DNA of 64,000 nt from a virus: positions 1 through 64,000 of the IMG/VR virus record IMGVR_UViG_3300012357_000001; one strand, written 5' to 3'. The translations under genes and the position numbers were made by a program. This document shows positions 24,862 to 53,841 of this stretch, in pieces; position 1 is the stretch's first letter, and every line of letters starts with the position of its first letter. The notes under the pieces were generated by a model. That model worked only from the letters and a program-made list of their open reading frames with translations. It was not told the origin of the DNA and did no database searches.

Positions 24862-24878
24862 CTGATGACAACTACAAC
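24862..24878 (-). promoter_or_regulatory. class-1 promoter-like box, variant (GTTGTAGTTGTCATCAG)
   Basis: -10-like TGTAGT followed by the conserved TGTCATCAG, 30 nt upstream of ATG 24832 and right after the stop of 24872..25201. Confidence 0.5.
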
Positions 24879-25201
24879 TTAGCAGACTCCCCGGCCTTGG
24901 CGGAAGGGTACTTCCACCCGGATCCGTAGGGGCCGGGGATGCCCCGGCGAAGCCAGCTGTCCACCTGCTCGATGTCGAACCACCGGTAGCCGCGCGGCGA
25001 GCCGTCGACCTTGTGGGTGATATCCACAGGCTGTGGAAAAGCCTCTCCGGCCGCGTTCTTGGTGCCGCGGTGCCACCAGTCCCGGATCCGTCGGCGGTCC
25101 AGCGGCGGGTCGATGGCGTAGCGCTCAGACAGGATGGCCGCCAGGCCCTGGAATCCGGCCCTGCCGTCCTTCTCCTCCCACAGCCTGCCGACGGGCGACA
25201 T
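24872..25201 (-). CDS. possible excisionase/MerR-like winged-helix DNA-binding protein
   Basis: Track ORF with RBS aggagaggag upstream. The C-terminal pattern YRWFDIEQVDSWL is reminiscent of Xis/AlpA-type HTH proteins. Weak call. Confidence 0.4.
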   Translation of the reverse strand: MSPVGRLWEEKDGRAGFQGLAAILSERYAIDPPLDRRRIRDWWHRGTKNAAGEAFPQPVDITHKVDGSPRGYRWFDIEQVDSWLRRGIPGPYGSGWKYPSAKAGESAKL

Positions 25202-25228
25202 CGCACCGTCTCCTCTCCTACACGGGGG

Positions 25229-25258
25229 CAGGGCCGCCGCCTGGCGGCGGCGACCCTG
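25229..25258 (-). terminator. terminator-like hairpin after the DUF932-like gene
   Basis: 8-bp stem GCCGCCGC/GCGGCGGC extended by CAGGG/CCCTG, 16 nt after stop 25274-25276. No clear U tract. Confidence 0.5.
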
Positions 25259-25273
25259 CGGTCAACTACTAGG

Positions 25274-26530
25274 TTATCGCCGGACGGAGACGAGCTCCAG
25301 GGCGGGAACCGCGAGGCGCTCGACCTCGTAGGCCCGGTCCGGGTCCTCCAGCGTCTGCGCGAAGGCGGTGATCGCGTTGGCGACACCGCCAGCGGTCGGC
25401 TGGCCGGACAGGATGAAGAAGTCGAGGACCGACTTCGACTCGTCGGCGGTGAAGCCGAGTCCGGTGCAGACCTTCGGCACGACCTCGGTCGGGCTGGCGA
25501 TCGTGACGGCGGCCTTCTCCTCGAAGCCCGTGATCATGCTGGCCAGGTAGTCGACGGTCAGCCACTGCGAGACCGCGTCGGAGGTCTCCGACTTGATCAG
25601 CTGACCGGCCGCGCGGACCGTGCCCAGCGAGGGGCGGATGACGCCCTCGGACAGGACGCGGCCGAGGTGGACCTTGCGGATGCCCTTGCGGACGTCGGTC
25701 CAGCCGTTGGTGCAGCGGACCAGGCAGACCACGGGGGTCAGGTTGTAGGCGCCGGAGCCGGTCTCGGAGTTGTCGAAGTCCAGGCCCATGTAGGCCAGGG
25801 GCTCGTCGCCGTGGTTGAAGATGTGGTGGTCGCCGTACTGGCGGCGCAGCGCGGTCAGGTCGCGGTGTCCGGCGCGGCGCGGGCCGTTGTCGGTGCCGCC
25901 GCTGCCGTCGAACGGGCTGCGGTAGCCGTCCAGCAGGCCCTCGGCGCGGGCGTAGACCTCGGGGAACTCGAACCGGACGCGCATCCGGGTCTCGCTCAGG
26001 TCCGAGACGTTGACGATCGGCTGCACACCGGCGGCCTGGATGCCCTGCGTGACGGCCATCAGCATGTCGAGGTTGTCCATCGACAGGTTGAACCGGTCGG
26101 ACAGGAACGCGCGGGCCACACCGGGCTCGCCAGCGTCGCCGCGGAACAGCCGCAGCAGGAAGCTGCGGTCGTCGGCCGCGTGCAGCAGGGTGCCGTCGGC
26201 GCCCTTGTTGCCGTGCAGCCATCCGTTGACGTTGCCGTCGATCAGGTCGTTGCGGCCCGCCTCGCGCAGCTTGCGGAAGTAGGTCGTGCCGATGCCCAGC
26301 TTGTCGGCCAGACCGCGGTCGGCGATGTCCGTGAGCGAGTAGGTGCCCGCCGCGGAGGTGACGCCCTCCTCGGTGACCTCGGCGACGGTGCTGGCGACCA
26401 CGAGCTGGCCGTTGCGGCTCCAGACCGAGCGGGCCGGGGCCACGACGTCGAGCTTGTGCGCCTTCTGCGAGTTGAGGATCTCGAGCAGTTCGGCGGCGGA
26501 GGCGTTGCGGGCGGTGAGCTGTACGGTCAT
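25274..26530 (-). CDS. DUF932-like phage/plasmid protein
   Basis: ATG 26530 is M27 of the track ORF. The pattern LDFDNSETGSGAY...VVCLVRCTNGW matches my recollection of the DUF932 core. Confidence 0.65.
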   Translation of the reverse strand: MTVQLTARNASAAELLEILNSQKAHKLDVVAPARSVWSRNGQLVVASTVAEVTEEGVTSAAGTYSLTDIADRGLADKLGIGTTYFRKLREAGRNDLIDGNVNGWLHGNKGADGTLLHAADDRSFLLRLFRGDAGEPGVARAFLSDRFNLSMDNLDMLMAVTQGIQAAGVQPIVNVSDLSETRMRVRFEFPEVYARAEGLLDGYRSPFDGSGGTDNGPRRAGHRDLTALRRQYGDHHIFNHGDEPLAYMGLDFDNSETGSGAYNLTPVVCLVRCTNGWTDVRKGIRKVHLGRVLSEGVIRPSLGTVRAAGQLIKSETSDAVSQWLTVDYLASMITGFEEKAAVTIASPTEVVPKVCTGLGFTADESKSVLDFFILSGQPTAGGVANAITAFAQTLEDPDRAYEVERLAVPALELVSVRR

Positions 26531-26569
26531 CTTCCCTGATCTCCTTGATCCGGGGCCGCTGCGGCCCCA

Positions 26570-26590
26570 CTGATGACAACTATACCCGGT
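26570..26590 (-). promoter_or_regulatory. class-1 promoter-like box (ACCGGGTATAGTTGTCATCAG)
   Basis: One of three identical 21-bp copies. -10-like TATAGT. 40 nt upstream of ATG 26530, with a 7-bp-stem hairpin (26552-26568) in the leader. Confidence 0.6.
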
Positions 26591-26669
26591 CTTCGGCCGT
26601 TCACACAAGCTGGCACGCAGAAAGGGCCCTCTGCGGCGGCAGATGACCCTTCCCGCACCCCGTTAGTAC

Positions 26670-26735: not shown

Positions 26736-26746
26736 TGCTTCGCAGC

Positions 26747-28809: not shown

Positions 28810-29786
28810 CAGACCTTTGCCATCTCTTCCCTGATCGTACGGAGTGCGTCGTCCCTGTAGTACTCGTAGGGGTCCGCCTGCCGGAATCTTCCACTGCGGA
28901 CAAGACTAGCAGACCAGTCGCTGCCGTCGTCCATCATCGGGCAGATTTCTCGGAAAGTGCACCACCACTTGCAGTCGTTCGGGATCTGCGTCGGATACAT
29001 CTGCGAGCGCTGTACCTGGTCGATCACGGCCAGGTCGCCGCCGCTGCGCTGGTATGCGTCGTCGAGCAGCGCGCGTGCCGCCATGATCTGCGACGCCACC
29101 GTCTGCACCTTCAGCAGCGTCGCGTGGACCTCCTCCGGGGTGTAGAGGAACGGGTCCCGCCGGTAGTACGGCGGATTGGCGCGAGCGGTCCGCTTCACCC
29201 TGCGCAGCGTGTCGATCGTGCCCCCCGCGATCTTCGGTCCGTCGGGCGGCGACGCGAGGTGCTGCACCAGCGTGTAGAACCTCATCTGCGGATTCATCCG
29301 CAGCTGCTCGGCGACCTCGAAGTTGGACCCGGTCTTGTAGTCGCGGAACAGCAGCGCGCCGTCGGAGATCCGCTCGGACACCTGGTCCATCCTGGCCCGC
29401 AGCTGCACACCGGGAACGCCCGGCAGGTCGACCCGCACGTCCGTCTCGGTGGCGACGGTCCGGAAGTCGGCGTCCACGCCCTCGGTGGCCAGCCACTCCA
29501 GGTAGCCGGACACCATCGCGTCGGCCATGTCCGCCTCGGTGGCCAGGTCGGACGCAAACTCGGGAGTGCGGTTCGCCTCGATCTTGTATAGCAGCGCGAG
29601 CACCGCGAGCGGGTCGAGCTGGTAGCCGTAGTAGGCCTCCAGCGCGGTGTGTACCCGAGTGCCGAGCTGGCGGGCGCCGGTCGGCGCTTCGTCGGCTGGC
29701 ACGAATCCCAGGTAGTACGTCAGGTACCAGTTCCTGCGGCACCTGGTCCACGCGTAGATCTCGGACTGCGAGATCATCGTCGTCAT
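28809..29786 (-). CDS. PD-(D/E)XK exonuclease, Cas4/RecB-like with Fe-S cysteines
   Basis: DYKTG motif, one N-terminal Cys (WTRCRRNW) and a C-terminal CKWWCTFREIC cluster. Confidence 0.8.
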   Translation of the reverse strand: MTTMISQSEIYAWTRCRRNWYLTYYLGFVPADEAPTGARQLGTRVHTALEAYYGYQLDPLAVLALLYKIEANRTPEFASDLATEADMADAMVSGYLEWLATEGVDADFRTVATETDVRVDLPGVPGVQLRARMDQVSERISDGALLFRDYKTGSNFEVAEQLRMNPQMRFYTLVQHLASPPDGPKIAGGTIDTLRRVKRTARANPPYYRRDPFLYTPEEVHATLLKVQTVASQIMAARALLDDAYQRSGGDLAVIDQVQRSQMYPTQIPNDCKWWCTFREICPMMDDGSDWSASLVRSGRFRQADPYEYYRDDALRTIREEMAKV

Positions 29787-31899: not shown

Positions 31900-32364
31900 C
31901 TACAAGATGTCAGCAGTGTGGAGCGTAGCACGCCAGCTGGTCGGCAGGTTCCCGCTCCGCAGGCACCACGCGACGAGGTGCTGGGCTGCGCTCTGCGCGT
32001 CGTCCTTGCCGGACGGCCACAGGCCCAGGGAGCGCAGCATGGCCGGGCTGGCGGGCTTGCGGTCGTCGGGTGCGGCCGGAGTCAGGATGCGCACGTGGCT
32101 GGCGATGGCCAGGTACCGGGCCACGCCGATCATCTCGATCGTCTGGTGCACCGGCTCCTGCGTGAGCTTGTGCGTCTGCGGGCCGATGTGGAATCTCTCC
32201 CACCCGATCATGCCGCCGTGGTTCGAGTGCTCGCAGAACGATGCGATGAGATCCCCGGCCTGCTGCGGCGGGAACTCGTTGGCCCAGAAGAATCTGCCAT
32301 CCATCAGCGTCGCCAGGCCGGTCATCCCGCCGGGATCGATCCACATCACGGCAGGCGGCAGCAC
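31900..32364 (-). CDS. RuvC-like Holliday junction resolvase
   Basis: N-terminal WIDPGGMTG (the RuvC GIDPG-type motif) and C-terminal DDAQSAAQH. 154 aa. Confidence 0.65.
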   Translation of the reverse strand: MLPPAVMWIDPGGMTGLATLMDGRFFWANEFPPQQAGDLIASFCEHSNHGGMIGWERFHIGPQTHKLTQEPVHQTIEMIGVARYLAIASHVRILTPAAPDDRKPASPAMLRSLGLWPSGKDDAQSAAQHLVAWCLRSGNLPTSWRATLHTADIL

Positions 32365-35481: not shown

Positions 35482-35514
35482 GTTCCTCCCTGAACTTGTC
35501 CTCAGATCAGGATA
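35482..35514 (-). promoter_or_regulatory. class-2 promoter-plus-leader element (TATCCTGATCTGAGGACAAGTTCAGGGAGGAAC)
   Basis: 28 of 33 nt identical to 41634-41666. Lies upstream of ATG 35475, in the 75-bp divergent intergenic region. Confidence 0.5.
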
Positions 35515-35526
35515 CACTGGAATCAG
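35513..35526 (+). promoter_or_regulatory. rightward -10-like element (TACACTGGAATCAG)
   Basis: TACACT followed by an ATCAG-containing discriminator resembling class 1. Overlaps the leftward -10 (AGGATA at 35509-35514) back to back. Upstream of the Prim-Pol gene. Confidence 0.35.
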
Positions 35527-35550
35527 CACCAGCGTTCAGGGAGGATTGCG

Positions 35551-36471: not shown

Positions 36472-36650
36472 GGAGCCGGACGCTGGCGGTCACCGCGTCC
36501 GGCCCCTCGCCGACCCCGGATGCCAGCACTAGGCTGGCACGCACCCCCTCTGGTGGAGAGGGGACGCTCAGAGCATTCCTGGCTGAAAGGAACACTCGGA
36601 TGAACATGCTACTCGACTCGTCCGCGCCCGCGTCAGGGGTGCGCAGGTGA
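36468..36650 (+). CDS. possible 60-aa coupling ORF
   Basis: GTGA overlaps at both ends (Prim-Pol stop and helicase start). Intermediate GC3. Contains two hairpins. Confidence 0.3.
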   Translation: MRSRTLAVTASGPSPTPDASTRLARTPSGGEGTLRAFLAERNTRMNMLLDSSAPASGVRR

Positions 36651-38053
36651 CAGCCACGGCGACAGCCCCGGCGGCCGTGGACACGCTGATGGGGATCCTG
36701 CAGAAGGACTACTACGTGGCGGCCACCACGGACGGGAGACCGTTCGCGGTGCGGCTGGACGCCCCCTCGGTCATGGTCCCGATGCGCGGAGCCTTCGGCA
36801 TGCGGCAGCGGTTGGCCGTGGACATGTACGCGCAGACCGGCCGGGTGGCGAACAACGACGCGCTCTCCTCCGCGCTGAACCTGGCCGAGGGCGCGGCCAT
36901 GGGCAAGGGCAGGGTCACCCCGCACCTGCGGATCGCCGCATGGCAGGGGTCGATATTCCTGGACCTGGGCCGTGCGGACGGCAAGGCCGTGGAGCTCCGG
37001 CCCGGCGCGTGGCGCGTGGTGGACCGGCCGCCCGTGCTGTTCACCAGGACCGCGCTGACGGCCGAGCTGCCGCTGCCCGCCGAGGACGGCCGGATGGAGG
37101 CTGCCCGCGACCTGATCAACATCCGGTCGGTGGACGACTGGGCCCTGTACGTCGCGTGCCGGGTGGCGTCCCTGTTCCCCGGCATCACGCACCCGATCGA
37201 GGTGATGAGCGGACCTCCGGGAAGTGCGAAGACGGCGGCCACCCGGATCACCACGAACTGGATCGACGCCTCGCCCGCCATGCAGCCGGTCCCGCGGGAC
37301 GGGCGGACCTGGGCCGCGCTGGCGGGCGGCCGGTACGTGCTGGCGCTGGACAACGTGTCCTCGGTGGCGCGCTGGTGGTCGGACGCGCTGTGCAAGGCGG
37401 CTAGCGGCGACGGATGGGTGGACAGAGCCCTCTATACGGACGGCGACCTGTACGTGGCGGCTTTTCAAAGCGTGATCGTGATGAACGGGATCACCCTGGG
37501 CGGTCTCGAGGGAGACCTGGCGGACCGGCTGGCGGCGCACAAGCTGGCGAGGATCACGGCGTACCGGTCGGACGACGAGGTCGCAGCCGTATGGGCGCTG
37601 GCGCACCCCGAGGCGCTGGCCTGGCTGCTGGACCAGACCGTCGCGATCCTCGCCGACATGGCGTCCATGCCGCAGCCGGTGGGGCAGGACCGCCTGATCC
37701 GGTTCTCGCAGATCGTGCAGCTGATCGACCGCCGCTGGCGGACCAATGCGATCGGTGCCTGGCGTTCGGGGCGGTATGCGGCCCTGGAGGACATCGCAGA
37801 CGGGGACGCGGTCGCGGTCGCGCTGCGCGAGGGGGTGCGCGCCGAATGGCGGGGCACGGCCACGGAGCTGGTGCACCACCTGGTGATGCACGGAGGGCTA
37901 CAGGACGAGTTCGGGCGCAAGTGGTCGCCCCGGATGCTGTCCGAGCGGTTGGAGCGGTCGAGCCAGGCCCTGGCGGCCATCGGCTGGCGGGTCGAGCGGT
38001 TCCGCGAGGGGCACGACCGGAAGCGGATGATCCGGATCCTGCCGCCGCAGTGA
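36647..38053 (+). CDS. P-loop NTPase, primase-associated helicase-like protein
   Basis: Walker A motif GPPGSAKT, Walker B-like YVLALDNV. Lies directly after the Prim-Pol gene. First in-frame start after stop 36584-36586. Confidence 0.65.
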   Translation: MTATATAPAAVDTLMGILQKDYYVAATTDGRPFAVRLDAPSVMVPMRGAFGMRQRLAVDMYAQTGRVANNDALSSALNLAEGAAMGKGRVTPHLRIAAWQGSIFLDLGRADGKAVELRPGAWRVVDRPPVLFTRTALTAELPLPAEDGRMEAARDLINIRSVDDWALYVACRVASLFPGITHPIEVMSGPPGSAKTAATRITTNWIDASPAMQPVPRDGRTWAALAGGRYVLALDNVSSVARWWSDALCKAASGDGWVDRALYTDGDLYVAAFQSVIVMNGITLGGLEGDLADRLAAHKLARITAYRSDDEVAAVWALAHPEALAWLLDQTVAILADMASMPQPVGQDRLIRFSQIVQLIDRRWRTNAIGAWRSGRYAALEDIADGDAVAVALREGVRAEWRGTATELVHHLVMHGGLQDEFGRKWSPRMLSERLERSSQALAAIGWRVERFREGHDRKRMIRILPPQ

Positions 38054-38068
38054 GGGACCGGATGAGAG

Positions 38069-38094
38069 GCCCGGACTACGGTCCGGGCTTTTCC
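38069..38094 (+). terminator. intrinsic terminator (GCCCGGAC-TACG-GTCCGGGC + TTTTCC)
   Basis: 8-bp GC stem, tetraloop and T tract, 16 nt after the helicase-like gene stop. Confidence 0.75.
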
Positions 38095-38096
38095 AC

Positions 38097-38402
38097 GTGC
38101 GGACGCATGCGGACGGAGGTCGCACGGTTGTCCCTTTACTCTTCCTCTCTATTTACCCCCTACCAGAGAAGGTATAGGGCGGACTGTCCTCCTGCGTCCG
38201 CGCGTCCGCAGAGAGGAAGTGGGAGGCTGTAAATGTGCGTCCGTATGGTCCGCATCGTCCGCATGAATCAGTTGCGGAGTGCGAGATGTGCGTCCGCATA
38301 GACGGATCATGCGAGGTGTGCGTCCGCGTCGGTGGGTGTGCGACCGCATGCGGACGCAGGATTCGTGGGTGTCAGATGGATAGTGCGAGATGTGCGTCCT
38401 CA
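38097..38402. repeat. array of at least 11 GCGTCCGC / GTCCGCAT-type short repeats in both orientations (iteron- or operator-like)
   Basis: Copies at 38099, 38108, 38193, 38202, 38234, 38247, 38256, 38287, 38317, 38337-38358 (palindrome) and 38391. An 18-bp direct repeat lies at 38278-38295 and 38382-38399. Confidence 0.8.
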
Positions 38403-38454
38403 CAGGTCAGGTACCAAGATCAACTTACCCTATGGCTTTGGGATCATCGGGCCG

Positions 38455-38469
38455 TATCATGACCGCATG
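38455..38469 (+). promoter_or_regulatory. -10-like TATCAT placed for a leaderless transcript of the TerS-like gene
   Basis: TATCAT at 38455-38460. The A of ATG 38467 lies 7 nt downstream, and no SD-like sequence intervenes. Confidence 0.3.
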
Positions 38470-39099
38470 GACGAGCAGGAGCGGCGCTCAATGGACGCGG
38501 TCATGGCGAATCTGCTGGGCCCGATCCCGACACATCAGTGCAAAGGGCACAATAAGGCCGGAGGGCCGTGCGGACAGGCTCCGGCAGCCGGATCAGAGGT
38601 CTGTCACCTCCACGGGGGCAAGGCGCCTCAGGTGATCTCCAAGGCGCAGGACCGGATGGCGCACCGGCAGGCGGTGATCGACGCGAAGAAGAGCGTGCTC
38701 GACCTGACGGACGAGGAGCTGATCGCGCAGTACGGCAACCCGGCCGAGACGCTGCAGTGGATCATGGCGATCTCGCGAGCGCTGGCGAGCCGGATGCAGG
38801 CCGTGCTGGCCGACAAGGAGGAGCTGACCTATTACGACGCGTTCGGCAACATCCACGTGCGCGGCGAGGTCGGCGCGATGCTCAAGGCGGCCGACCTGGC
38901 TGGGACGCACGCCGAGCGCGCGCTGCGCCTCGGATTGGACAAGCGGGGCCTGGACCTGCAGGAGAAGCAGCTGCTGCTGCTGGATAGGGCGCTGGATACG
39001 GCTCTGACGCAGGCCGGGCTGAACACGGAGATGCAGAAGACCGTGCGCCGGGTGCTCCGGAGTGAGATTCTTGCTGCGGACAACGCCATGACGGAGTAG
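38467..39099 (+). CDS. terminase small subunit-like protein (zinc-ribbon N-terminus)
   Basis: M46 of the track ORF. The motif CKGHNKAGGPCGQAPAAGSEVCHLHGG followed by a helical body matches my recollection of actinophage TerS proteins. Unverified. Confidence 0.4.
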   Translation: MDEQERRSMDAVMANLLGPIPTHQCKGHNKAGGPCGQAPAAGSEVCHLHGGKAPQVISKAQDRMAHRQAVIDAKKSVLDLTDEELIAQYGNPAETLQWIMAISRALASRMQAVLADKEELTYYDAFGNIHVRGEVGAMLKAADLAGTHAERALRLGLDKRGLDLQEKQLLLLDRALDTALTQAGLNTEMQKTVRRVLRSEILAADNAMTE

Positions 39100-39140
39100 G
39101 CTGGTGACAAGTAGTCATCTGGTCAGGGAGGAGCAACCGA

Positions 39141-39608
39141 ATGAAGGTAGCCACCATGCAGGACTTCGGCGGCAACAGGGTGCACGTCAGTAGGGACGGG
39201 ATCTTCAGCGCCGTGGTCGACGGCATCACGTACGAGGCGGACACGCTCGTCGGGCTGCGGGACGCGGTCATGTTCCGCACGTATAAGAAGCCTGACAAGG
39301 TCGAGGTGCCGTTCACGGTCATCGAGGACGGCCAGATCCGCAACGGCACTGCACTGGGGATCCGCGGGATAGACGGCCACATCCAGGTGCTGTGGGCCGA
39401 CACCGACCGGCTCGGATTCATCACCTGGACCCACCGGGCCCTCAAGCGGCTGGGTACGGGCGACGCGGACACGTACCGTCGGCTGTGCGCCGCACGGGAT
39501 GCGGCGATACACGCCGTCGAGCGGTTCGAGCGCACGCACTCGATCAACATCAAGGACGAGATCGCTGCGGCGCTCGCCGCGGACGGTGAAGGGAAGAGGA
39601 CCGAATGA
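39141..39608 (+). CDS. hypothetical protein
   Basis: Track ORF preceded by GTCAGGGAGGA at 39122-39132. Confidence 0.55.
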   Translation: MKVATMQDFGGNRVHVSRDGIFSAVVDGITYEADTLVGLRDAVMFRTYKKPDKVEVPFTVIEDGQIRNGTALGIRGIDGHIQVLWADTDRLGFITWTHRALKRLGTGDADTYRRLCAARDAAIHAVERFERTHSINIKDEIAAALAADGEGKRTE

Positions 39609-41633: not shown

Positions 41634-41666
41634 TACCGTGAAGTGAGGACAAGTTCAGGGAGGAAG
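41634..41666 (+). promoter_or_regulatory. class-2 promoter-plus-leader element (TACCGTGAAGTGAGGACAAGTTCAGGGAGGAAG)
   Basis: 28 of 33 nt identical to 35482-35514 on the - strand. Ends 5 nt before GTG 41672. Confidence 0.5.
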
Positions 41667-41671: not shown

Positions 41672-42172
41672 GTGAAGGTGAATACACCGCCACCGCTGCC
41701 CAAGCACGAGATCACCGTGCACGAGCGGCTGGACAACCAGGCACAGGCCATCTGCTCCTGCGGCCGGTACAGGTCGGTCATCGGGACGCCGTACCGGGTC
41801 AACAGGCTGGGAGCCAGGCACAGCACGAACCAGATCGAGAAGGCCGCCGCGGCACGCGCTGCCGAGGCCGCGCTCAGGGAGGCCGCAATGGCGCCGATGT
41901 CCCGGCACGACGAGCTGGCACAGCGCTTCGACTCCGACCCGGATGCGGTCGAGTGGGCGCACGCGAAGATCCTGCGGCTGATCGAGCGGGCCGAGGGCTT
42001 CGAGAGGCACTCGAACGACAGCGGCAGCCTGCAGACGGCCGCGCGCTGGCACCTCGTCGCGGCCTTCATGCGCCAGACGCTGATCGGCGGCGAGGGCTGC
42101 GTGGTCGCGGCCTTCGACCCCCGCCTGCCGGAGTGGACCCGGGCAGTGCGCAGGGGCGGTGACACCGGATGA
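41672..42172 (+). CDS. hypothetical protein
   Basis: GTG start preceded by the 22-bp leader TGAGGACAAGTTCAGGGAGGAA. Confidence 0.55.
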   Translation: MKVNTPPPLPKHEITVHERLDNQAQAICSCGRYRSVIGTPYRVNRLGARHSTNQIEKAAAARAAEAALREAAMAPMSRHDELAQRFDSDPDAVEWAHAKILRLIERAEGFERHSNDSGSLQTAARWHLVAAFMRQTLIGGEGCVVAAFDPRLPEWTRAVRRGGDTG

Positions 42173-46868: not shown

Positions 46869-46883
46869 CCCATCCCACCGGCG

Positions 46884-46918
46884 CGGCCCCGCAGCAATTT
46901 GCGGGGCCGTTCTGTGTT
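46884..46918 (+). terminator. intrinsic terminator
   Basis: 10-bp stem CGGCCCCGCA/TGCGGGGCCG, 6-nt loop, then TTCTGTGTT. 16 nt after stop 46866-46868. Confidence 0.7.
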
Positions 46919-46932
46919 GCGTCCGGGCGTGG

Positions 46933-46953
46933 ACCGGGTATAGTTGTCATCAG
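46933..46953 (+). promoter_or_regulatory. class-1 promoter-like box (ACCGGGTATAGTTGTCATCAG)
   Basis: Identical 21-mer, 24 nt after the terminator hairpin at 46884-46909. Confidence 0.6.
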
Positions 46954-47249
46954 TAGGACACGCCGGGGCCCCTCGGGGCACCAGGAAGCCGAGCGAGTAG
47001 CGCCCGATGAACTCGGGGTCTAGCGAAAAGGGATCTTCGATCCCCTGCTGCGGAGCGACGCAGGTCCAAATCCTGCGCACGGCGCGCAACCGACAAGTCC
47101 GTAGCCAATCGGAGCAGCCGGGCCGCCGTACAAGGACCCAATGGCACGGAGGCGCGCGAGCGCCAAACCACCAGCAACCAGGGGACGTACGGCGGTGCAC
47201 AGCAGATCAGGCGGGCACCACGCCCGCCGACCGTTCAGGGAGGATCACC

Positions 47250-47615
47250 ATGCACCGCAACTTCACCGATGTCTCCGCCGAAGTGGTCGCGCTCGCCGAG
47301 CGCATGTCCGAGCTGTCCGGCCTCATGTACGCCGACGCAGTCCAGACGATGAACCGGCTCCGCGGCGAGCTCTGCCGGATCCGGGGTGTCGCCGAGCAGG
47401 ACATCAGCGCCGACGGCTACGAGATCTCGCAGCGCGCCTACGAGCGCTCGCGCGACCGCTGGATCCAGGAGATCTCGTCCCCGCACGCCGAGGACTGGCA
47501 CTGGGACGGGGCGCACGAGGCGTACGCCTGGTGGATCCAGCTGCGCCCCGATCTGGTCATCCAGGACCGCTGCTGGTTCGCCGCCGTGCCCGCGCTCGCC
47601 GGTTCGGAGGTCTGA
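47250..47615 (+). CDS. hypothetical protein
   Basis: M82 of track ORF 47007..47615, preceded by TTCAGGGAGGA at 47234-47244. The upstream in-frame part has poor GC3. Confidence 0.55.
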   Translation: MHRNFTDVSAEVVALAERMSELSGLMYADAVQTMNRLRGELCRIRGVAEQDISADGYEISQRAYERSRDRWIQEISSPHAEDWHWDGAHEAYAWWIQLRPDLVIQDRCWFAAVPALAGSEV

Positions 47616-47617
47616 CC

Positions 47618-47827
47618 GTGAACGTCTACCGCATCAGCGCGGCCACCAGGACCGACAGCAGGCTGTCGATCGAGTACGCGCCCACCAAGGACGCCGCGGT
47701 GCACCAGGCCGCGGACCGCTGGCTGGACGAGGGCATGCGCATCGTGGAGATCTATCCCGCCGAGTACCTGGGCGTCGTGGAGCAGTACGAGGCGCGGAAC
47801 CCGGGACGGCCGGTGCGGAAGTCATGA
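47618..47827 (+). CDS. hypothetical protein
   Basis: GTG 47618, in frame with track ORF 47141..47827. Confidence 0.45.
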   Translation: MNVYRISAATRTDSRLSIEYAPTKDAAVHQAADRWLDEGMRIVEIYPAEYLGVVEQYEARNPGRPVRKS

Positions 47828-48366
47828 TGGACGACGACAACGCCGTGCACGCCGCCCGCGAGCTGCACGAGGACCGGGTGTCCGAGAACGTCGCCCGGAT
47901 CCAGAAGCGGCTGACCGGCAAGCTGTGGATCCTGTTCCACGCCAAGAGCTACCTGCTCGGCGTGCTGCAGCTGCTGGAGAACGCACACCTCCTGCGCGAC
48001 ACCGTGCAGGAGGAGAAGGACGCCGAGCACCGCAGGCAGATGATGAAGGCCTTCGGCCCGGCCCTCGGCGAGCGGGAGAAGGCCTACCGCAAGCTGGCGT
48101 CGCAGGCCGCGTACTGGTCGGGCATCCCCGGCGTCGTCGAACGGCTGGAGCTGATCGAGAGAGCTCGCGACGCCGACGAGTACATGGCGCTGACCGCCAG
48201 GTTCGAGTCCGACGAGCTGCCCCGGCTGGTCCAGGCCTGGCGCGAGGCGCGCAAGGCCAGCGCCGAGGCCGCGGTGCAACGCGTCGCCAGGCTCCTCGAC
48301 CCCAAGCGCAAGACGGTGTCCATGCAGGCCCTGCGCGACGCGCTCGGCATTAGGGAAGAGGAGTAG
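47824..48366 (+). CDS. hypothetical helical protein
   Basis: ATGA coupling. Last 180 codons of track ORF 47386..48366. Confidence 0.55.
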   Translation: MMDDDNAVHAARELHEDRVSENVARIQKRLTGKLWILFHAKSYLLGVLQLLENAHLLRDTVQEEKDAEHRRQMMKAFGPALGEREKAYRKLASQAAYWSGIPGVVERLELIERARDADEYMALTARFESDELPRLVQAWREARKASAEAAVQRVARLLDPKRKTVSMQALRDALGIREEE

Positions 48367-48369
48367 ATC

Positions 48370-48621
48370 ATGGCCAGCTACACACACGAGCAGCAGCGCG
48401 CCCTACGGAGCCTGGACCTCCCGGCTGACACCAAGGTGCGCGACCGCAACGGGTACCAGTGGCGGCGCGGCGGCGGCACCGGGCGGTTCTGGTACCGGGA
48501 GTTCAAGCTGCAGTCGTACGCCGCCAGCTGGCGCGAGCTCCTCAAGAGTGGACCGCTTGAGCGCTGGGACGCCGAGAACGAGACCTGGTCGGCCATCGAG
48601 CCGGGAGGGGAAGACCGATGA
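48370..48621 (+). CDS. hypothetical protein
   Basis: Track ORF. Confidence 0.5.
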   Translation: MASYTHEQQRALRSLDLPADTKVRDRNGYQWRRGGGTGRFWYREFKLQSYAASWRELLKSGPLERWDAENETWSAIEPGGEDR

Positions 48622-49037
48622 ACCTTCTCAACGTACTCACCCCGGCGCAGCTCGCGGTGCTCCAGGCCGTCGAGGACGCGTCGCACGTCACGCGCCCGGA
48701 ACGGCCGGAGCTGAAGGTCGGTGACACGGTCATCGCCTCGGGCTCCGGTGTCCGTGGACGCACCACGACCGTCACGAAGATCGGCCCCAAGTGGATCACC
48801 ATCGGCCAAGGGACCGCGACATCGCGGTTCGACCGACAGACCTGGCGCGGTGGGCACGGGTACGGCATCGGAGCCTCCATCCGCACTCCGGAGCAGGTCG
48901 CCTACGACCAGCGGATCGCCACAGCTAGGAGTCGGCTGACCAATGCCGGTCTGCGGATCCCTTACTTGGCCGACGTCTCCGACGGCCGACTGCTAGCCGT
49001 CGCCGCGCTACTGGAGCTGTTGGATGAGGAGGTCTGA
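48618..49037 (+). CDS. hypothetical protein
   Basis: Track ORF with ATGA coupling. Confidence 0.5.
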   Translation: MNLLNVLTPAQLAVLQAVEDASHVTRPERPELKVGDTVIASGSGVRGRTTTVTKIGPKWITIGQGTATSRFDRQTWRGGHGYGIGASIRTPEQVAYDQRIATARSRLTNAGLRIPYLADVSDGRLLAVAALLELLDEEV

Positions 49038-49043
49038 CCAGCC

Positions 49044-49352
49044 GTGACATCGAGCGACACAGCACAGGCAGCGGCGCTCTCGCGGGCGCTGCGGAAGGCC
49101 GGATGGAACCCGGTCAGCTCGGACAGTCCGCGCCGGTACGACGCCGGTCTGACCGTGCGGCGCGGCCCGCTGGGCCTCGGCGCCACGGTGTGCCTGAGCT
49201 CGCCGAAGACCCGGGAGCTGGACGGATGGTCCAAGGAGATGGCCGCGGACCTGACGAAGATGGGCTACGTGTTCGAGCGCAGCGAGATGGAGTGCGACAG
49301 CTCCGGATACACCGTGTGGTTCCGCCGGGTGAGGAAGATGATGGTCCTGTGA
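49044..49352 (+). CDS. hypothetical protein
   Basis: Track ORF with GTG start. Confidence 0.5.
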   Translation: MTSSDTAQAAALSRALRKAGWNPVSSDSPRRYDAGLTVRRGPLGLGATVCLSSPKTRELDGWSKEMAADLTKMGYVFERSEMECDSSGYTVWFRRVRKMMVL

Positions 49353-49702
49353 CCGGCCGACGGAGGGTCCGGATCCGGATCACCTGCGTCAACTGCCTGC
49401 GTGCGGATCAAGCGCACCGAGGCCACGGCTGGTGCCAGGCCTGCTACATGCGCTGGTCTCGCGCCGGACGGCCCGACACCGGACCGCCCGCGCCCTACGA
49501 GGTGCAGCTGGTCGACGACGTCGCCATTGAGCTCGCCGTGAAGGGCGCGCGCCCGTGGCTCACCCCGCGCGAACGCCGCATCGCCGTCGCCGAGCTGCGT
49601 CTGCGCGGCCTGTCCCTGAACGCCATCGCCGACCGGCTCGGCTGCACCCAGCGCACCGTCGTGCGCCACGTATCCGCGATCAAGAAGGGGGCGTACGCAT
49701 GA
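49349..49702 (+). CDS. DNA-binding protein: zinc finger plus sigma70-region-4/LuxR-like HTH
   Basis: GTGA coupling. CVNCL...HGWCQACY, then LTPRERRIAVAELRLRGLSLNAIADRLGCTQRTVVRHV. Confidence 0.6.
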   Translation: MTGRRRVRIRITCVNCLRADQAHRGHGWCQACYMRWSRAGRPDTGPPAPYEVQLVDDVAIELAVKGARPWLTPRERRIAVAELRLRGLSLNAIADRLGCTQRTVVRHVSAIKKGAYA

Positions 49703-50015
49703 TGGCACGCTACGCGGCCGGTACCGAGGTGTCCTCGGACCGGTCCCGCACCGAGATCGAGAGGACGCTGCGCCGCTACGGCGCCACGCAGTTCCTGTAC
49801 GGCTGGAGCGGGCGCCGCGCCACCGTGGGCTTCACCGCGCACGGCCGCAGCATCCGCTTCGAGCTGCCGATGCCCGACGCGAACGACCGCGAGTTCACTC
49901 GCACCGACACCGGGCGGACGCGCTCCGAGACCACGTCGCCGAGGCGTACGTCACCGGCCGCGTGCCCGCGCTGCTGCCGGACTACCGGATCGCCATCGAA
50001 TCAGGAGGACACTGA
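49699..50015 (+). CDS. small phage protein with an apparent reading-frame break near 49900-49930
   Basis: The N-terminal 77 aa are protein-like in the ATG 49699 frame. The protein-like, GC3-rich continuation (DHVAEAYVTGRVPALLPDYRIAIESGGH, stop 50013-50015) is in the -1 frame. Confidence 0.35.
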
Positions 50016-50016
50016 T

Positions 50017-50280
50017 ATGCCGACCTATAAATTCGAGCGGGTCACCCGCTATGTCACCAAGTACGTCAAGTGTCGCGGGTGCAGTGCGCGGCTCAAGCGC
50101 TCCGCCACCCTCGGCCAGACCATCAACCCGTTCAACAAAGGGGCGAACGGCGTTCCCAAGACTCGCCTGCAGATCGTCTTAGAGCTCGAAGACGAGGCGG
50201 GCACCTGGTACCCGGCCAACGACATCTGCCGCAAGTGCGACAACCTGGCCCACGCCAGGCATCTGCTCGAGGAGTGCTGA
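50017..50280 (+). CDS. zinc-ribbon protein
   Basis: RBS aggagga at 50003-50009, then ATG 50017. CRGC...CRKC pairs. Confidence 0.55.
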   Translation: MPTYKFERVTRYVTKYVKCRGCSARLKRSATLGQTINPFNKGANGVPKTRLQIVLELEDEAGTWYPANDICRKCDNLAHARHLLEEC

Positions 50281-50296
50281 GCGGTACATTGCGGAC

Positions 50297-50527
50297 ATGA
50301 CCACTCGACTGCAGGCGCTCGTGAGGATCCAGGCCGGGACGGAGCGGGCGCGCTGGCCGGACATCATGCCCGGCGACGTGTGGGACGACGCCGACGACGT
50401 CAACGCCTCCCGGCTGATCAGCAACGGATCGGCGGTCGCCGCTCCGGCTGGCACGGTCAGCTACCCGCATCAAGACCTGAGGCTGCTCGACGGCGTGCCG
50501 GGGCTGCGCAAGGCGGTGAGCAACTGA
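50297..50527 (+). CDS. hypothetical protein
   Basis: Track ORF. Confidence 0.45.
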   Translation: MTTRLQALVRIQAGTERARWPDIMPGDVWDDADDVNASRLISNGSAVAAPAGTVSYPHQDLRLLDGVPGLRKAVSN

Positions 50528-50793
50528 TGACGATCTACAGCCGCCACCCGCTGTGGGCGCCGAGCGCCACGCAGCGGATGCCGCGTCCCGAGCAGACCCT
50601 GCGGATCAGCATTCGTCCGGGTGTGCTCACCAGCCTGTACGCAGCTATTAGCCGGGACGTCTCGAAGGGCGCCCCGCAGGCGACGCGCACCCCGGTGCGC
50701 CCGGCCAATGAGACCGACTTCACCGCGGACGGCGTAGCCGATCCCGACACCGAGGTGCCGATGCCGCAGTGGCACCGTGGTGTGACCAACTAG
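50527..50793 (+). CDS. hypothetical protein
   Basis: M50 of track ORF 50380..50793. TGATG junction. Confidence 0.45.
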   Translation: MTIYSRHPLWAPSATQRMPRPEQTLRISIRPGVLTSLYAAISRDVSKGAPQATRTPVRPANETDFTADGVADPDTEVPMPQWHRGVTN

Positions 50794-50796
50794 CGG

Positions 50797-50817
50797 ACCG
50801 GGTATAGTTGTCATCAG
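50797..50817 (+). promoter_or_regulatory. class-1 promoter-like box (ACCGGGTATAGTTGTCATCAG)
   Basis: Identical 21-mer, 4 nt after stop 50791-50793 and 30 nt upstream of ATG 50847. Confidence 0.6.
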
Positions 50818-50846: not shown

Positions 50847-51308
50847 ATGAAGGTCACGCGCACACGCACGCACAGGAAGATCGCGGCCGTCATAGCGGCT
50901 GCCGTCGCGGCAACCGTTTTCACGATGTACGAGACGTCCGGGAACAGCGACGCCGGTCCACCGGTGCAGGTGCAGGCCGCCCCGGCGCAGCCCGTCGATC
51001 CGGCCGCGGTGCTGGCGTCAATGCACGTCCCGACCGACGGTCGGATCTCCGGCCCGATCGACACCGAGGGCGACCAGTACGCCAGCGGCTCGTTCGCCGA
51101 CGGCGAGCAGGTCACGGTGTATACGTACACATACACATCCGCCCAGGCCATGGCCGCCGACGCCGAGTACTTCAAGATCCCCGGACCCGGCAACGCGGAC
51201 AGGGTGCTGCTCGGCTCCAGATTCATCGTCGTGGTGACCGGCGTCGGCAGCGCCTTCCCGGAGAACCCGGCCACGCTGGCGAAGGAGTCCGGCACGACTC
51301 TTGACTAG
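50847..51308 (+). CDS. secreted or membrane-anchored protein
   Basis: M14 of the track ORF. N-terminal basic stretch plus hydrophobic helix (KIAAVIAAAVAATVF). Has its own promoter-like box and start motif. Confidence 0.55.
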   Translation: MKVTRTRTHRKIAAVIAAAVAATVFTMYETSGNSDAGPPVQVQAAPAQPVDPAAVLASMHVPTDGRISGPIDTEGDQYASGSFADGEQVTVYTYTYTSAQAMAADAEYFKIPGPGNADRVLLGSRFIVVVTGVGSAFPENPATLAKESGTTLD

Positions 51309-51314
51309 GCCTGC

Positions 51315-51329
51315 TAGACTTGTCATCAG
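51315..51329 (+). promoter_or_regulatory. class-1 promoter-like box, variant (TAGACTTGTCATCAG)
   Basis: -10-like TAGACT plus TGTCATCAG, 7 nt after stop 51306-51308 and 37 nt upstream of ATG 51366. Confidence 0.5.
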
Positions 51330-51365: not shown

Positions 51366-51932
51366 ATGACCAACACGACCCGCCCGCTCTCCCAGATCGC
51401 GCGTGAGATCGTGCGCGACTGGAAGAGCCCGTATTTCGGCGCCGTGCCTTACCTCGAGGCGATGCTGAGGCTCAACACGATCAACGACTCGTTCGGGCAC
51501 GATGAGGCGGACGACATCGTCCGCTACTTCCTGTCCAACGCAGCCACGTGGCGCGGCGAGACCGCTCGGCGCGTCAAGGTCGAGCTGAAGGCGATGCTGA
51601 AGGCCACCCTGGCGCGCCGCGCGTCCGGCGTTGCCGACACGCAGCGCGCTGACCTCGCTCCGGATACCGACACTGGTTCAGACCTGCGGCCGGTTTCTTT
51701 CAGAGCTGCGCACCGCGCCGCATACCTCGCGGGCGACGCGGCCCGCTATGAGGCGGAGATGATCGAGGAGGCGTGCTGGCGGGTCTACGACTACGAGAAA
51801 GACGCCTACCTCGGCCTGGTCCGCGACCCCAACGAGTACTACGAGGTCACCGACTTCGGCTGCGCGGACTACGTGGCGTACGCGCTGAACCACAGCCACG
51901 CGCGCCAGCTGCTCGGCAAGGGTAGGGGCTGA
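51366..51932 (+). CDS. hypothetical protein
   Basis: Track ORF preceded by a promoter-like box and TTCAGGGAAGA. Confidence 0.55.
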   Translation: MTNTTRPLSQIAREIVRDWKSPYFGAVPYLEAMLRLNTINDSFGHDEADDIVRYFLSNAATWRGETARRVKVELKAMLKATLARRASGVADTQRADLAPDTDTGSDLRPVSFRAAHRAAYLAGDAARYEAEMIEEACWRVYDYEKDAYLGLVRDPNEYYEVTDFGCADYVAYALNHSHARQLLGKGRG

Positions 51933-52135: not shown

Positions 52136-52485
52136 CGAAGATCAATGTGGAGAGGGAGATCACCACTACCACGCTGACGGTGCTGCTCCCCGCAGACACG
52201 CCGCAGTTCGACAGGCCGTACAGCAACGAAAAACTGCAGCTGGTCAAGCTGCAGTTGTCGTACACCACCATCACCCAGGGAGAGTCGTGGGCTCTCTCAG
52301 ACGGACGTGTCGTCGGCTACGTCATCCGCAAGGACGGCAGCCTGGGCCAGCCCAGGGACAACGCTCTGTATGTCCACATCAACGGCCAGCCGAGCAATGC
52401 GTGGCCGGACTGGGCAAAGGCCCTGGCCGAGGAACTCGCACCGAGGCCGGGCTCCGGCCCTGTCAGATCGAGGAGCACGTCGTGA
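52132..52485 (+). CDS. hypothetical protein
   Basis: Track ORF with ATGA coupling. Confidence 0.5.
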   Translation: MTKINVEREITTTTLTVLLPADTPQFDRPYSNEKLQLVKLQLSYTTITQGESWALSDGRVVGYVIRKDGSLGQPRDNALYVHINGQPSNAWPDWAKALAEELAPRPGSGPVRSRSTS

Positions 52486-52739
52486 GCCACACCAAGGAAA
52501 AGACCCCGGAGATCTTCATCATGATCAAGGACTGCTGCTGCGGTGTGGACCATCGCATGAAGCGGTCCGCGTGGACGAAGTACCGCGACTCCGTGAAGGA
52601 CAAGCTGCCCACGATGCCGGTCGGCAGCGGCCTCGCCTGCTGGCGAGTGCCGCGGATCTACGTCACCTGCCACGGCATCGCGGCGGCCGACGTGCCGGGG
52701 CTGGCCAAGCTCTACGGCTGGGAAGAGGTGACGCCGTGA
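52482..52739 (+). CDS. hypothetical Cys-rich protein
   Basis: GTGA coupling. Residue 66 onward of track ORF 52287..52739. Confidence 0.45.
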   Translation: MSHTKEKTPEIFIMIKDCCCGVDHRMKRSAWTKYRDSVKDKLPTMPVGSGLACWRVPRIYVTCHGIAAADVPGLAKLYGWEEVTP

Positions 52740-52984
52740 CGCAGTGCCCGTGGAAGATCCACTGGGCGGCCGGTCAGGAGCACACCACGCAGTGCGGCAG
52801 GAACAGGCACAGCGACCAGCACCACCGGGGCAGGCATCCCAACCCGGACTCCTCGACCGGCTACACGGTGATCCAGTGGATCGCCGGTGACCGCCGCGAG
52901 TACACCGGCGAGTGGCCCGGCCCGTGCGTCGAGACGCCTGGGTGCGTCCTGCACACCCGGCACAAGGGAAGGTGTGCGACGTGA
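52736..52984 (+). CDS. hypothetical Cys/His-rich protein
   Basis: GTGA coupling. In frame with track ORF 52307..52984. Confidence 0.45.
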   Translation: MTQCPWKIHWAAGQEHTTQCGRNRHSDQHHRGRHPNPDSSTGYTVIQWIAGDRREYTGEWPGPCVETPGCVLHTRHKGRCAT

Positions 52985-53469
52985 TCGAGATCATCGCGTT
53001 CCTGACCGCGCAGTACGACGAAGAGGAAGCCGCCGCGCGTGCGTCCGCCGAAGCCGACCCGGCGCCGTGGACCGCCTACGCCGTCGGCGAGCAGAGCACC
53101 GGCCTGGGAACCGGCCTGCGCAGCGGCCACGGCTACGGGTCCGTCTCCGCGGCCGACGACGTCGACCTGTGGGACTGCGAGGGCAGCAGCATGCTGTGCA
53201 TGACGGCGCCGACGGCGCGGCACACCGCGATGCACGACCCGGCCCGGGTATTCGTCGAACTGGAAGTCAAGCGGGCTCGGCTCAAGCTGCATAGCCCCGA
53301 CACACGCAGGATGCCGTCACGCTGCCTGGTGTGCCTGAGCGACCGGGCCGGACGCATGTCCGACGACTGGGAGCCGGACGTGTGGCCGTGCAAGACGGTC
53401 CTGTTGGACGCGGCCGTCTACGTCGGCCGACCCGGCTACCAGAAGGAGTGGATCATCGATGACGACTGA
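52981..53469 (+). CDS. DUF6221-like protein
   Basis: GTGA coupling. The pattern FLTAQYDEEEAAARA...HDPARVFVELEVKRARLKLH...CLVC...WPCKT matches my recollection of this actinobacterial/phage family. Confidence 0.5.
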   Translation: MIEIIAFLTAQYDEEEAAARASAEADPAPWTAYAVGEQSTGLGTGLRSGHGYGSVSAADDVDLWDCEGSSMLCMTAPTARHTAMHDPARVFVELEVKRARLKLHSPDTRRMPSRCLVCLSDRAGRMSDDWEPDVWPCKTVLLDAAVYVGRPGYQKEWIIDDD

Positions 53470-53767
53470 CGTGGACGCGCGAACCCGGCTGCGGATGGCC
53501 CGGTACGGGGTTGCGGGCAACCCCGACGCCCTGAGGATCTACGAGCTGGCGAACGCAGCGCTGGCCGAGCAGGACGCCGAGATCTACCGGTTGAAGGATG
53601 CCCTGGCGGCTCTGGCGGACCAGGCCGTGCTGCACGCCACCGGAGCGCAGTGCGAGGTGATCATCGCGTCCGGGGTGGTGGACAACGAGACGCCTGGTAC
53701 GATCTTGCGCTCGACCGATGACACGAGGAGCTGGGAGCTCACAGGCGGTGGGTGGCAGCTGAGGTGA
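53459..53767 (+). CDS. hypothetical protein
   Basis: Track ORF. Last gene before the terminator at 53785-53804. Confidence 0.5.
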   Translation: MTTDVDARTRLRMARYGVAGNPDALRIYELANAALAEQDAEIYRLKDALAALADQAVLHATGAQCEVIIASGVVDNETPGTILRSTDDTRSWELTGGGWQLR

Positions 53768-53784
53768 GGATGGATACCAGCGAG

Positions 53785-53804
53785 GCCCGGACTACGGTCC
53801 GGGC
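53785..53804 (+). terminator. terminator hairpin identical to 38069-38088 (weak T tract)
   Basis: Same 20-bp hairpin (23-bp identity including the GAG flank), 18 nt after stop 53765-53767, followed by CTTCGTCGT. Confidence 0.55.
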
Positions 53805-53824
53805 CTTCGTCGTGCCTGGTGGCA

Positions 53825-53841
53825 TATCATTGTCCGCAGTA
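53825..53841 (+). promoter_or_regulatory. class-1 promoter-like box, variant (TATCATTGTCCGCAGTA)
   Basis: -10-like TATCAT plus TGTCCGCAG, 21 nt after the terminator hairpin and about 50 nt upstream of ATG 53890 (lysis/late unit). Confidence 0.45.

Follow-up and report, generated by a model that had tools for sequence, protein, structure and literature searches.

The repeated box and its genomic setting

The 64,000-nucleotide (nt) stretch analyzed here (the window; positions 1 to 64,000 of IMG/VR virus record IMGVR_UViG_3300012357_000001) has a G+C content of 68% and looks like most of the genome of a tailed phage. Our subject is a 21-bp sequence, ACCGGGTATAGTTGTCATCAG, that recurs in its non-structural region, together with variants that share a short core, TTGTCATCAG; we refer to these as boxes. 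Structural and late genes, including those for a GH25 lysin, terminase, Mu-type portal and tape measure protein, occupy the plus strand from 53.9 kb to the end of the window and then from 1 to 22.9 kb. A leftward replication arm (22.9-35.5 kb) encodes a family A DNA polymerase, an SNF2 helicase, a PD-(D/E)XK nuclease, an AAA_24 protein and a 418-amino-acid (aa) phrog_1362 protein, and a rightward arm (35.5-53.8 kb) contains small genes mostly without assignment, among them PrimPol, DUF397, DUF4031, MazG-like, ProQ-C-like, DUF6221 and a small helix-turn-helix (HTH) gene. The sequence is identical to that of a 71,748-bp contig of metagenome assembly GCA_009787515.1, and our gene scans covered 69.8 of its ~71.7 kb. 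Pfam and PHROG scans of ~60 predicted proteins found no integrase, repressor or partition gene, many small open reading frames remaining unannotated, and no RNA polymerase or sigma factor gene was recognized in these scans or in the gene table. Proteins of the window recur in many soil assemblies, with the phage on up to 27 blocks of public assemblies. We found no close isolated phage, the best matches being to Arthrobacter, Gordonia and Mycobacterium phages at no more than 40% identity, and a genome-contig scan of 185,579 genomes with a phrog_1362 alignment found no prophage relative. This is an uncultivated, lytic-looking soil actinobacterial phage of ~72 kb, with a presumed high-GC actinobacterium as its host.

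The 21-mer occurs in three exact copies, at 26570-26590 on the minus strand and at 46933-46953 and 50797-50817 on the plus strand, just as the initial annotation had listed them, with no other match at up to three mismatches in the window and none in 100 shuffles. At the same tolerance the 15-mer TATAGTTGTCATCAG gave five matches versus 0.18 expected, adding 24862-24876 (minus strand) and 51315-51329 (plus strand). Two further variants listed earlier, TATCATTGTCCGCAG at 53825-53839 and ACAAGTAGTCATCTGG at 39107-39122, are also present, but the latter is weak and lies beside a better site, in inverted orientation, at 39101-39110. No 10-mer of the window is more over-represented than TTGTCATCAG, found five times in sense and never in antisense orientation (~0.01 expected). 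Generalizing this core to TTGTC-NN-CAG (TTGTCNNCAG) yielded 11 sites versus 1.29 expected (largest shuffle, 4), every one of them within 24.8-53.9 kb and at a gene boundary or gene end, with no further site in the next 5.8 kb of the genome beyond the window. A TAnnnT hexamer is fused to (T/A)GTCnnCAG six times in the window (0.41 expected). Genome-wide, the GTCCGCA segment of the TGTCCGCAG variants shows no enrichment (23 versus 21 expected), and we therefore treat these variants as weaker members. An eighth copy, within the nuclease gene (Table 1), is kept with the coding sequence in all relatives, even those without the box elsewhere; it is a doubtful member that could be an internal promoter or a coding coincidence. 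An exact match to GGTATAGTTGTCATCAG in IMG/VR, a single hit on a low-GC contig of 194 kb, was set aside as chance, and a literature search for the literal motif returned primers only.

The surroundings of the boxes largely follow the initial description. A stop codon or terminator precedes each copy (hairpins at 46883-46910 and 53785-53804; stops at 50791-50793, 51306-51308 and 24872-24874), and terminator hairpins lie upstream of the orthologues of the 26570 copy in every relative. The stated interval of 30-50 nt to the downstream start codon, with 295 nt for one copy, fits five copies (29-48 nt) and the 46933 copy (296 nt), but the 39107 copy stands at 18 nt; the start-associated TCAGGGA motif follows six of the seven copies, the 53825 copy having TCAGGAG instead. 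The promoters that we predict at the boxes, and the other features discussed below, are collected in Table 1.

Table 1. Predicted promoters and associated features, in window coordinates.
Feature	Position	Strand	Elements
Promoter of the 418-aa phrog_1362 gene (25274-26530)	26570..26608	-	Exact 21-mer; -35 TTGTGT 26608-26603, 18-nt spacer, -10 TATAGT 26584-26579, core TGTCATCAG 26578-26570
Promoter after terminator 46883-46910	46917..46953	+	Exact 21-mer; -35 TTGCGT 46917-46922, 16-nt spacer, -10 TATAGT 46939-46944, core 46945-46953
Promoter of 153-aa signal-peptide-like gene (50847-51308)	50780..50817	+	Exact 21-mer; -35-like GTGTGA 50780-50785, 17-nt spacer holding the upstream stop codon, -10 TATAGT 50803-50808, core 50809-50817
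Extended -10 promoter of gene 51366-51932	51312..51329	+	TGC TAGACT + TGTCATCAG
Promoter of gene 24248-24832	24862..24884	-	Extended -10 TGC TAAGTT 24884-24876, GTAGT, core 24870-24862
Late/lysis unit start	53830..53870	+	TTGTCCGCAG 53830-53839, abutting probable -10 TACGCT 53840-53845; second site TTGTCGTCAG 53861-53870
Divergent control region	35496..35518	.	Site TTGTCCTCAG 35496-35505; back-to-back -10s AGGATA 35509-35514 (leftward TATCCT, DNA polymerase operon) and TACACT 35513-35518 (rightward, PrimPol)
Promoter of gene 39141-39608	39074..39110	+	-10 TAGGCT 39097-39102, with inverted sites either side: 39074-39083 (TTGTCCGCAG on -) and 39101-39110 (TTGTCACCAG on -)
SNF2 helicase operon promoter	31907..31930	-	TGC TACGCT 31930-31922, N5, inverted box-like CTGCTGACAT 31916-31907
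Promoter module of gene 41672-42172	41634..41665	+	TACCGT-GAAG-TGAGGACAAGT-TCAGGGAGGAA
Eighth copy, TAGTCTTGTCCGCAG	28894..28908	-	Inside PD-(D/E)XK nuclease gene; absent from the initial annotation
Non-coding leader, 296 nt	46954..47249	+	Predicted transcript from the 46933 copy
84-aa HTH protein (HTH_23 / GerE / sigma-70 region-4-like)	49448..49702	+	In the operon behind the best-conserved copy

Conservation of the box and promoter class

Relatives of the phage were fetched via the phrog_1362 protein, the terminase and gp47250; queries with the MazG-like, gp47833 and ProQ-C-like proteins returned none. Members of the clade are the loci L002/L010, L003, L004/L011/L054, L016 and L009, with 75-91% protein identity, and L048/L053, with 60%; the 47250 operon and its leader are missing from the start of the L004/L011 contig. 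Conservation of the box in related phages had been proposed as a check, and we found TTGTCATCAG unchanged at 17 of 17 sites in eight genomes; for the metagenomic relatives that keep it, protein identity is given overall as 60-88%. The hexamers before it vary (TATAGT, CATAGT, CTAAGT, TAATGT, TAGACT, TAGTGT and TGTAGT), with T at the first position in 15 of the 17 sites, A at the second in 11 and T at the sixth in all 17; at the five sites with G in the second position, TGCTAnnnT is conserved 6 nt upstream. At 16 of the 17 sites the G of an extended -10 element (G-14, two bases upstream of the hexamer) is present, and most have cTTGTnn at a distance of 17-18 bp on the upstream side. ACCGGG, which makes up the upstream half of the 21-mer, is confined to the window and has diverged in the relatives.

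The same pattern is seen at individual orthologous positions. Across five genomes, the only invariant blocks of the intergenic region before the phrog_1362 gene are GTTGTCATCAGT and a block comprising the ribosome site and start, and the orthologues in L002, L003, L004 and L016 retain the TTG -35, TAnnnT and GTTGTCATCAGT within diverged flanks. At the 46933 promoter, ~400 nt have drifted to about half identity between the window and L048, and GGGTATAGTTGTCATCAGTA is the only block of this region kept perfectly in L048/L053, with cTTGTCA-N17 upstream. The orthologue of the 50797 copy (L011:1580) reads TAGTGT+TGTCATCAG, TGCTAGACTTGTCATCAG of the 51312 promoter recurs at L010:297 and L011:2560, and GTAGTTGTCATCAG at the 24862 copy is invariant in five genomes, with TGCTAnnnT kept in all five by way of rare T-ending codons. 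The core forms TCATCAG, TCAACAG and GATAGAAG appear as lineage-specific changes. At the late unit, the hexamer TATCAT at 53825, which the initial annotation had placed within the box, is not kept in relatives. Conserved in L010 and L011 are instead GTCCGCAGT(A/G)CGCT and (A/C)CTTGTC(G/C)TCAG, such that GTCCGCAG directly abuts TACGCT and CTTGTC(G/C)TCAG follows ~20 nt downstream; the late -10 is likely to be TACGCT at 53840-53845, between two box-like sites.

The earlier reading of the hexamer as a -10 element and of the boxes as the openings of transcription units is borne out by this comparison, as TAnnnT, G-14 (TGn) and cTTGTnn at 17-18 bp are kept while other intergenic sequence drifts. The comparative evidence gives good support to the prediction that the boxes are promoters of the host principal-sigma (sigma-A/HrdB) type, with a weak -35 or an extended -10. 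The suggested use of host HrdB holds as to the principal-sigma type, the name HrdB being an assumption. Like ordinary sigma-70/sigma-A extended -10 promoters, the boxes have TAnnnT, G-14/TGn, a TTG -35 at 16-18 bp, a position after terminators or stops and a C-A-G start; they differ from them in that ordinary principal-sigma promoters have no common invariant 10-bp sequence between -10 and +3. We also considered TTGTCA as a -35 or as a -26 element of the PafBC/RecA-NDp type, and rejected this, as the perfect copies have no -10 downstream at the distance that such an element would need.

A sister clade (L005, L006, L007/L021/L022 and L008; 55-62% identity in the phrog_1362 protein) lacks the box. 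At orthologous intergenic positions it carries GGAAT-N17-TGTTG(A/G), which matches the SigH/SigR/SigE-type consensus of extracytoplasmic function (ECF) sigma factors, in three to five copies per locus (L021:9659-14950, L022, L007, L008:9894-13980, L005:2866 and L006:2215) and with downstream blocks that are invariant within a lineage. In L021, each of five copies is followed by the invariant ATAGAAGTGAAGGGC; in L008, three copies occur as TGTTGACAA. When reverse-complemented, the L008 sequence is a near-copy of the box (TTGTCAACA); in one instance it reads CATAGTTGTCAACAG, with 13 of 15 bases as in the window. This likeness may stem either from a quasi-palindromic site common to both clades (GTTGWCAAC) or from coincidence with the ECF -10. 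The sister-clade promoters resemble known SigH/SigR/SigE promoters (GGAAT-N18-GTT), whereas the box of the window has no conserved -35 at the ECF distance from its GTTG. Within the window, GGAA(T/C)/GTTG promoters gave one match versus 1.7 by chance and none at the box, and a crude probe found no ECF sigma gene in the fetched sister-clade loci. The orthologous ECF-type promoters thus mark these positions independently as promoters, and imply that promoter class changed between the clades.

The core as a proposed site for a regulator

The initial annotation had offered, as an alternative to a dedicated promoter class, a promoter overlapped by a regulator-binding site. This is the reading that we tentatively favour, on account of core-like sites at other registers and in the other orientation at further promoters. 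The core is separable from the -10: it is displaced by 5 nt at the 24862 copy, lies both abutting and following the late TACGCT, is inverted at the polymerase, SNF2 and 41672 promoters, and stands on both sides of TAGGCT at 39097. Inverted sites are found at 39074 and 39101 and inverted near-sites at 31907 and 41644, and the site at 35496 is inverted relative to the leftward promoter. The inverted arrangement, TAnnnT followed after 0-8 nt by CTGnnGAC(A/T), occurs twice in the window (0.44 expected) and is kept at orthologous sites in L002-L004 and L048. At the 24862 copy, the hexamer that adjoins the core is TGTAGT, in which the key A is missing and the upstream gene has its stop codon (TAG, 24874-24872); the core, lying 5 nt past the better -10, would fall at about +1 and not in the discriminator.

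Conservation extends to these further promoters. In the divergent control region at 35.5 kb, CTGAACT(T/A)GTC(C/A)(T/G)CAG and an AnnnTAnnnT layout of overlapping hexamers (AGGATACACT) are retained in L002-L004; the site would overlie both the start predicted for the leftward promoter, relative to which it is inverted, and the rightward promoter's spacer. The overlap of the two hexamers at 35509-35518 is itself a predicted compact bidirectional promoter. GTAGGCTG(C/G)TGACAAGTAGTCA of the 39141 promoter is retained at L048:145, and TGCTAnnCT-N5-CTGCTGACATCTTG of the SNF2 operon promoter is kept in L002-L004; in the window it overlaps the last codons (rare, T-ending) of gene 31900-32364. The module of gene 41672 is the inverted-repeat partner of the leftward promoter at 35483-35514 and is found also at L048:3098; in both genomes TAnnnT-N4-(C)TGAGGACAAGT is fused to the ribosome-site motif.

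Because the core occurs at other registers and in the opposite orientation, a pure discriminator does not suffice as an explanation. Contact with sigma or core polymerase is strand- and register-specific and cannot account for inverted or displaced sites. An RNA element cannot do so either, and a fused -10 would leave no more than the final three core bases in the transcript. We put at roughly 0.45 the probability that the core is an independent DNA site for a sequence-specific regulator, bound at or next to the transcription start by a putative factor. Under such a model, host principal-sigma polymerase would read the boxes through a TTG-type -35 or a TGn/G-14 extended -10 together with TAnnnT, and the boxes would head most non-structural transcription units. 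The invariant, asymmetric 10 bp of TTGTCATCAG (general form, TTGTC-NN-CAG), fused to the -10, would span about -6 to +3, and a sequence-specific factor, whose existence we infer and which is probably phage-encoded, would sit on this core at or next to the start. It may switch the set of promoters jointly, with early shut-off or immunity-like repression as the presumed sign of regulation. The five perfect sites would then be the strongest operators, with weaker variant sites next to or across the other promoters, the late one among them. The 84-aa HTH protein is, judging by its sequence, the only recognizable candidate for the factor. A model of the gp47250 family (10 homologues; helical, predicted local distance difference test score 81) had no significant fold match in the PDB, and PDB sequence searches with three other conserved small proteins gave no matches.

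Several observations weigh against an independent regulator site. The Pfam and PHROG scans gave only one small HTH, so that no binder has been identified, and an immunity role is unsupported given that neither an integrase nor a repressor was seen. The register between core and -10 is identical in four of the five perfect copies, which would fit polymerase contact or a promoter cassette that was simply copied. Sites that are inverted or displaced depart from the perfect core by one or two bases, and about one of the 11 sites would arise by chance; for two inverted sites, which overlap coding sequence, conservation may be partly protein-driven. In addition, the starts are predicted from sequence at all promoters, and a strict TTGACA/TATAAT scan (9 of 12 matches to an E. 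coli-style consensus) called none of the box sites, which is the expected behaviour for actinobacterial promoters, though it remains a caveat.

The best-surviving alternative, to which we give an appreciable but minority chance, is an intrinsic promoter element with no separate factor, in which a TGTCATC discriminator and a CAG start context (C-1, A+1, G+2) are selected to tune open-complex stability, start choice or promoter escape, perhaps with CarD/RbpA, and the identity of the copies reflects the spread and upkeep of one optimized cassette. The fixed register, seen also at most of the relatives' sites, and the sense orientation of all perfect copies are in keeping with this, as is CAG itself, a pyrimidine-purine start with G at +2 that conforms to known start-site preference and to the core recognition element. 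The three identical copies share similarity over 26-34 nt including the spacer, as intragenomic copying predicts, and cassette promoters seem a habit of the group, given that the ECF-type promoters of the sister clade also have long invariant blocks after the -10 (GTTGATAGAAGTGAAGGGC in five copies in L021). Set against these points, ten invariant bases at only 60% protein identity exceed what contacts of sigma region 1.2 or core polymerase are known to need, the core at 24862 lies 5 nt further from the better extended -10, and box-like sites stand upstream, downstream and inverted relative to other -10s.

We consider it improbable that the core, jointly with the TCAGGGA motif, acts in RNA as a 5'-end tag or a processing or protein-binding site (for instance for the ProQ-C-like product of 48618-49037). 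Such a role could draw on the predicted transcription of the core in two places, the 24862 copy and the displaced late site, on the presence of the ProQ-C-like gene, on the match between the ATCAG that ends the box and the (G)ATCAG that opens the start-associated motif, and on 5' stem-loops with compensatory changes that follow the box in phrog_1362 leaders. The fused -10, however, leaves only the last one to three core bases in the RNA, inverted copies yield a different RNA, and the sequence downstream of the core is not kept. Still less probable is the dedicated class of the initial annotation, a T7-like or phage sigma-dependent set of promoters read by a private polymerase or sigma factor. 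A long identical 21-mer does resemble the promoters of single-subunit polymerases, the HTH protein is weakly similar to sigma-70 region 4, and the sister clade uses another sigma class at the same sites; but no polymerase or sigma gene was found in the 69.8 of ~71.7 kb scanned, the ACCGGG half of the 21-mer is not kept, and the canonical TTG -35, TGn and TAnnnT of principal-sigma promoters are present. Lastly, a mobile or recently duplicated repeat without function (a miniature inverted-repeat transposable element, or gene conversion), which the 21-nt identity and 26-34-nt similarity of three copies in one genome might suggest, can be dismissed: no terminal inverted repeats or target-site duplications lie beside the copies, their orientation is always that of the downstream gene, and the core is kept at orthologous positions despite diverged flanks, which contradicts such an origin.

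Returning to the core as a regulator-binding site, a broader version can be framed only tentatively, and we regard it as doubtful. In this version, TTGTC-NN-CAG would be the operator of an unrecognized global regulator of a widespread group of soil actinophages, which would bind an asymmetric 10-bp site as a monomer, act in either orientation at the transcription start and gate every non-structural promoter and the late promoter, with exchange of promoter class between sister lineages (ECF-type GGAAT-N17-TGTTG in one, principal-sigma TAnnnT in the other) around the quasi-palindromic core GTTGWCAAC.

Leader, start-associated motif and known systems

The 46933 promoter would drive the 296-nt leader and the operon from 47250 to 50793. 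The leader has no coding signal by G+C content at third codon positions, no tRNA, tmRNA or Rfam match (Rfam, ARAGORN), and a fold energy no better than that of shuffles. It holds a tRNA-like T-arm hairpin, GCAGG-TCCAAAT-CCTGC, and the homologous leaders L048:7569-7877 and L053:2465-2773 have a canonical T-arm, GCCGG-TTCGAAT-CCGGT, with one compensatory pair change. In the L048/L053 leader, the first bases of the transcript, AAGGCCGGA, are complementary to those that directly follow the T-arm and would form an acceptor/T minihelix with them; the leader has only two independent homologues. Directly after the predicted start of the phrog_1362 mRNA, 26540-26569 forms a GC-rich stem-loop (CCGC...GCGG) with compensatory changes across five genomes, which is probably a 5' stabilizer.

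The TCAGGGA motif occurs in 26 copies versus 7.7 expected. In the longer form TCAGGGA(A/G)GA it is found at ~14 sites between 23944 and 51344, in sense orientation and 2-21 nt before non-structural start codons (for example at 26533-26539, 35536-35542 and 47235-47241). Two flavours can be told apart: GATCAGGGAAGA, mainly in the leftward arm, and GTTCAGGGAGGA, in the rightward arm and the polymerase operon. Repeated asymmetric start-associated sequences (SAS, and the related ESAS) with a Shine-Dalgarno core are known from Cluster K mycobacteriophages (PMC3203893), and TCAGGGA(A/G)GA is like them an asymmetric repeat that embeds a Shine-Dalgarno core, upstream of non-structural starts and in one orientation (PMC3203893). 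It differs in sequence and in its more variable spacing (2-21 nt); the box, for its part, lies upstream and belongs to the promoter.

In Cluster A mycobacteriophages (L5, TipsytheTRex), asymmetric repressor sites lie over promoters and in intergenic gaps and are bound by a monomeric immunity repressor (PMC9283540). Like these stoperators, the sites described here are short and asymmetric (10-14 bp, versus 13 bp for stoperators), recur many times at promoters and in short gaps, and are mostly co-oriented and cluster-wide (PMC9283540). Here, however, no such repressor, integrase or sign of lysogeny was found, the sites number ~11 versus 20-30, and the strongest join directly onto the -10 in a fixed register; several are also inverted, and the orientation rule of stoperators, which lose function when inverted, thus does not apply. 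The L5 stoperator consensus, GGTGGMTGTCAAG, also contains TGTCA. The Streptomyces phage phiC31 has several near-alike early promoters as well as repressor sites, its operators being inverted repeats for a known repressor and its early promoters not being known to resemble those of the host principal sigma. The present phage is similar to it in having highly similar promoters spread through an actinophage genome, and differs in its asymmetric site and host-like promoters.

Other repeats were noted in the genome. An array of 48-nt (16-codon) repeats, in at least 19 copies at 19571-20979, lies within an 895-aa gene (18826-21513) whose product is probably a tail-fibre or decoration protein of repetitive sequence. 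Genome-wide there are six to eight occurrences of CGACCTGATCA and related 9-11-mers, in sense orientation only, which may reflect coding bias (D-L-I). About ten copies of TGCGTCCGCA(T), with both orientations represented, surround an AT-richer stretch (38130-38185) within 38095-38405, in the region that separates the 468-aa gene (36647-38053) from the 255-aa gene (38332-39099); this array looks like iterons or an origin, or a regulator array. The terminator hairpin GAGGCCCGGACTACGGTCCGGGC is used twice, at 38064-38090 before the iteron-like region and at 53782-53806 before the late promoter.

Such motifs are common in phages, and the box appears to be a lineage-specific instance of a familiar repeated promoter or operator feature that overturns no current view. 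It does supply a map of the transcription units of an uncultivated phage, with five strong promoters, about six variants, terminators and a start-associated motif. For use in high-GC actinobacteria, the 35-40-bp promoters are candidates for portable parts, both as they stand and stripped of the core. Should the core be an operator, it would constitute a compact genome-wide switch in a phage with no sign of lysogeny. The comparison with the sister clade amounts to a natural experiment in which sigma dependence was swapped without moving the promoters, and if a global operator with exchange of promoter class were true, it would document how promoter class can turn over while the regulatory sites stay in place.

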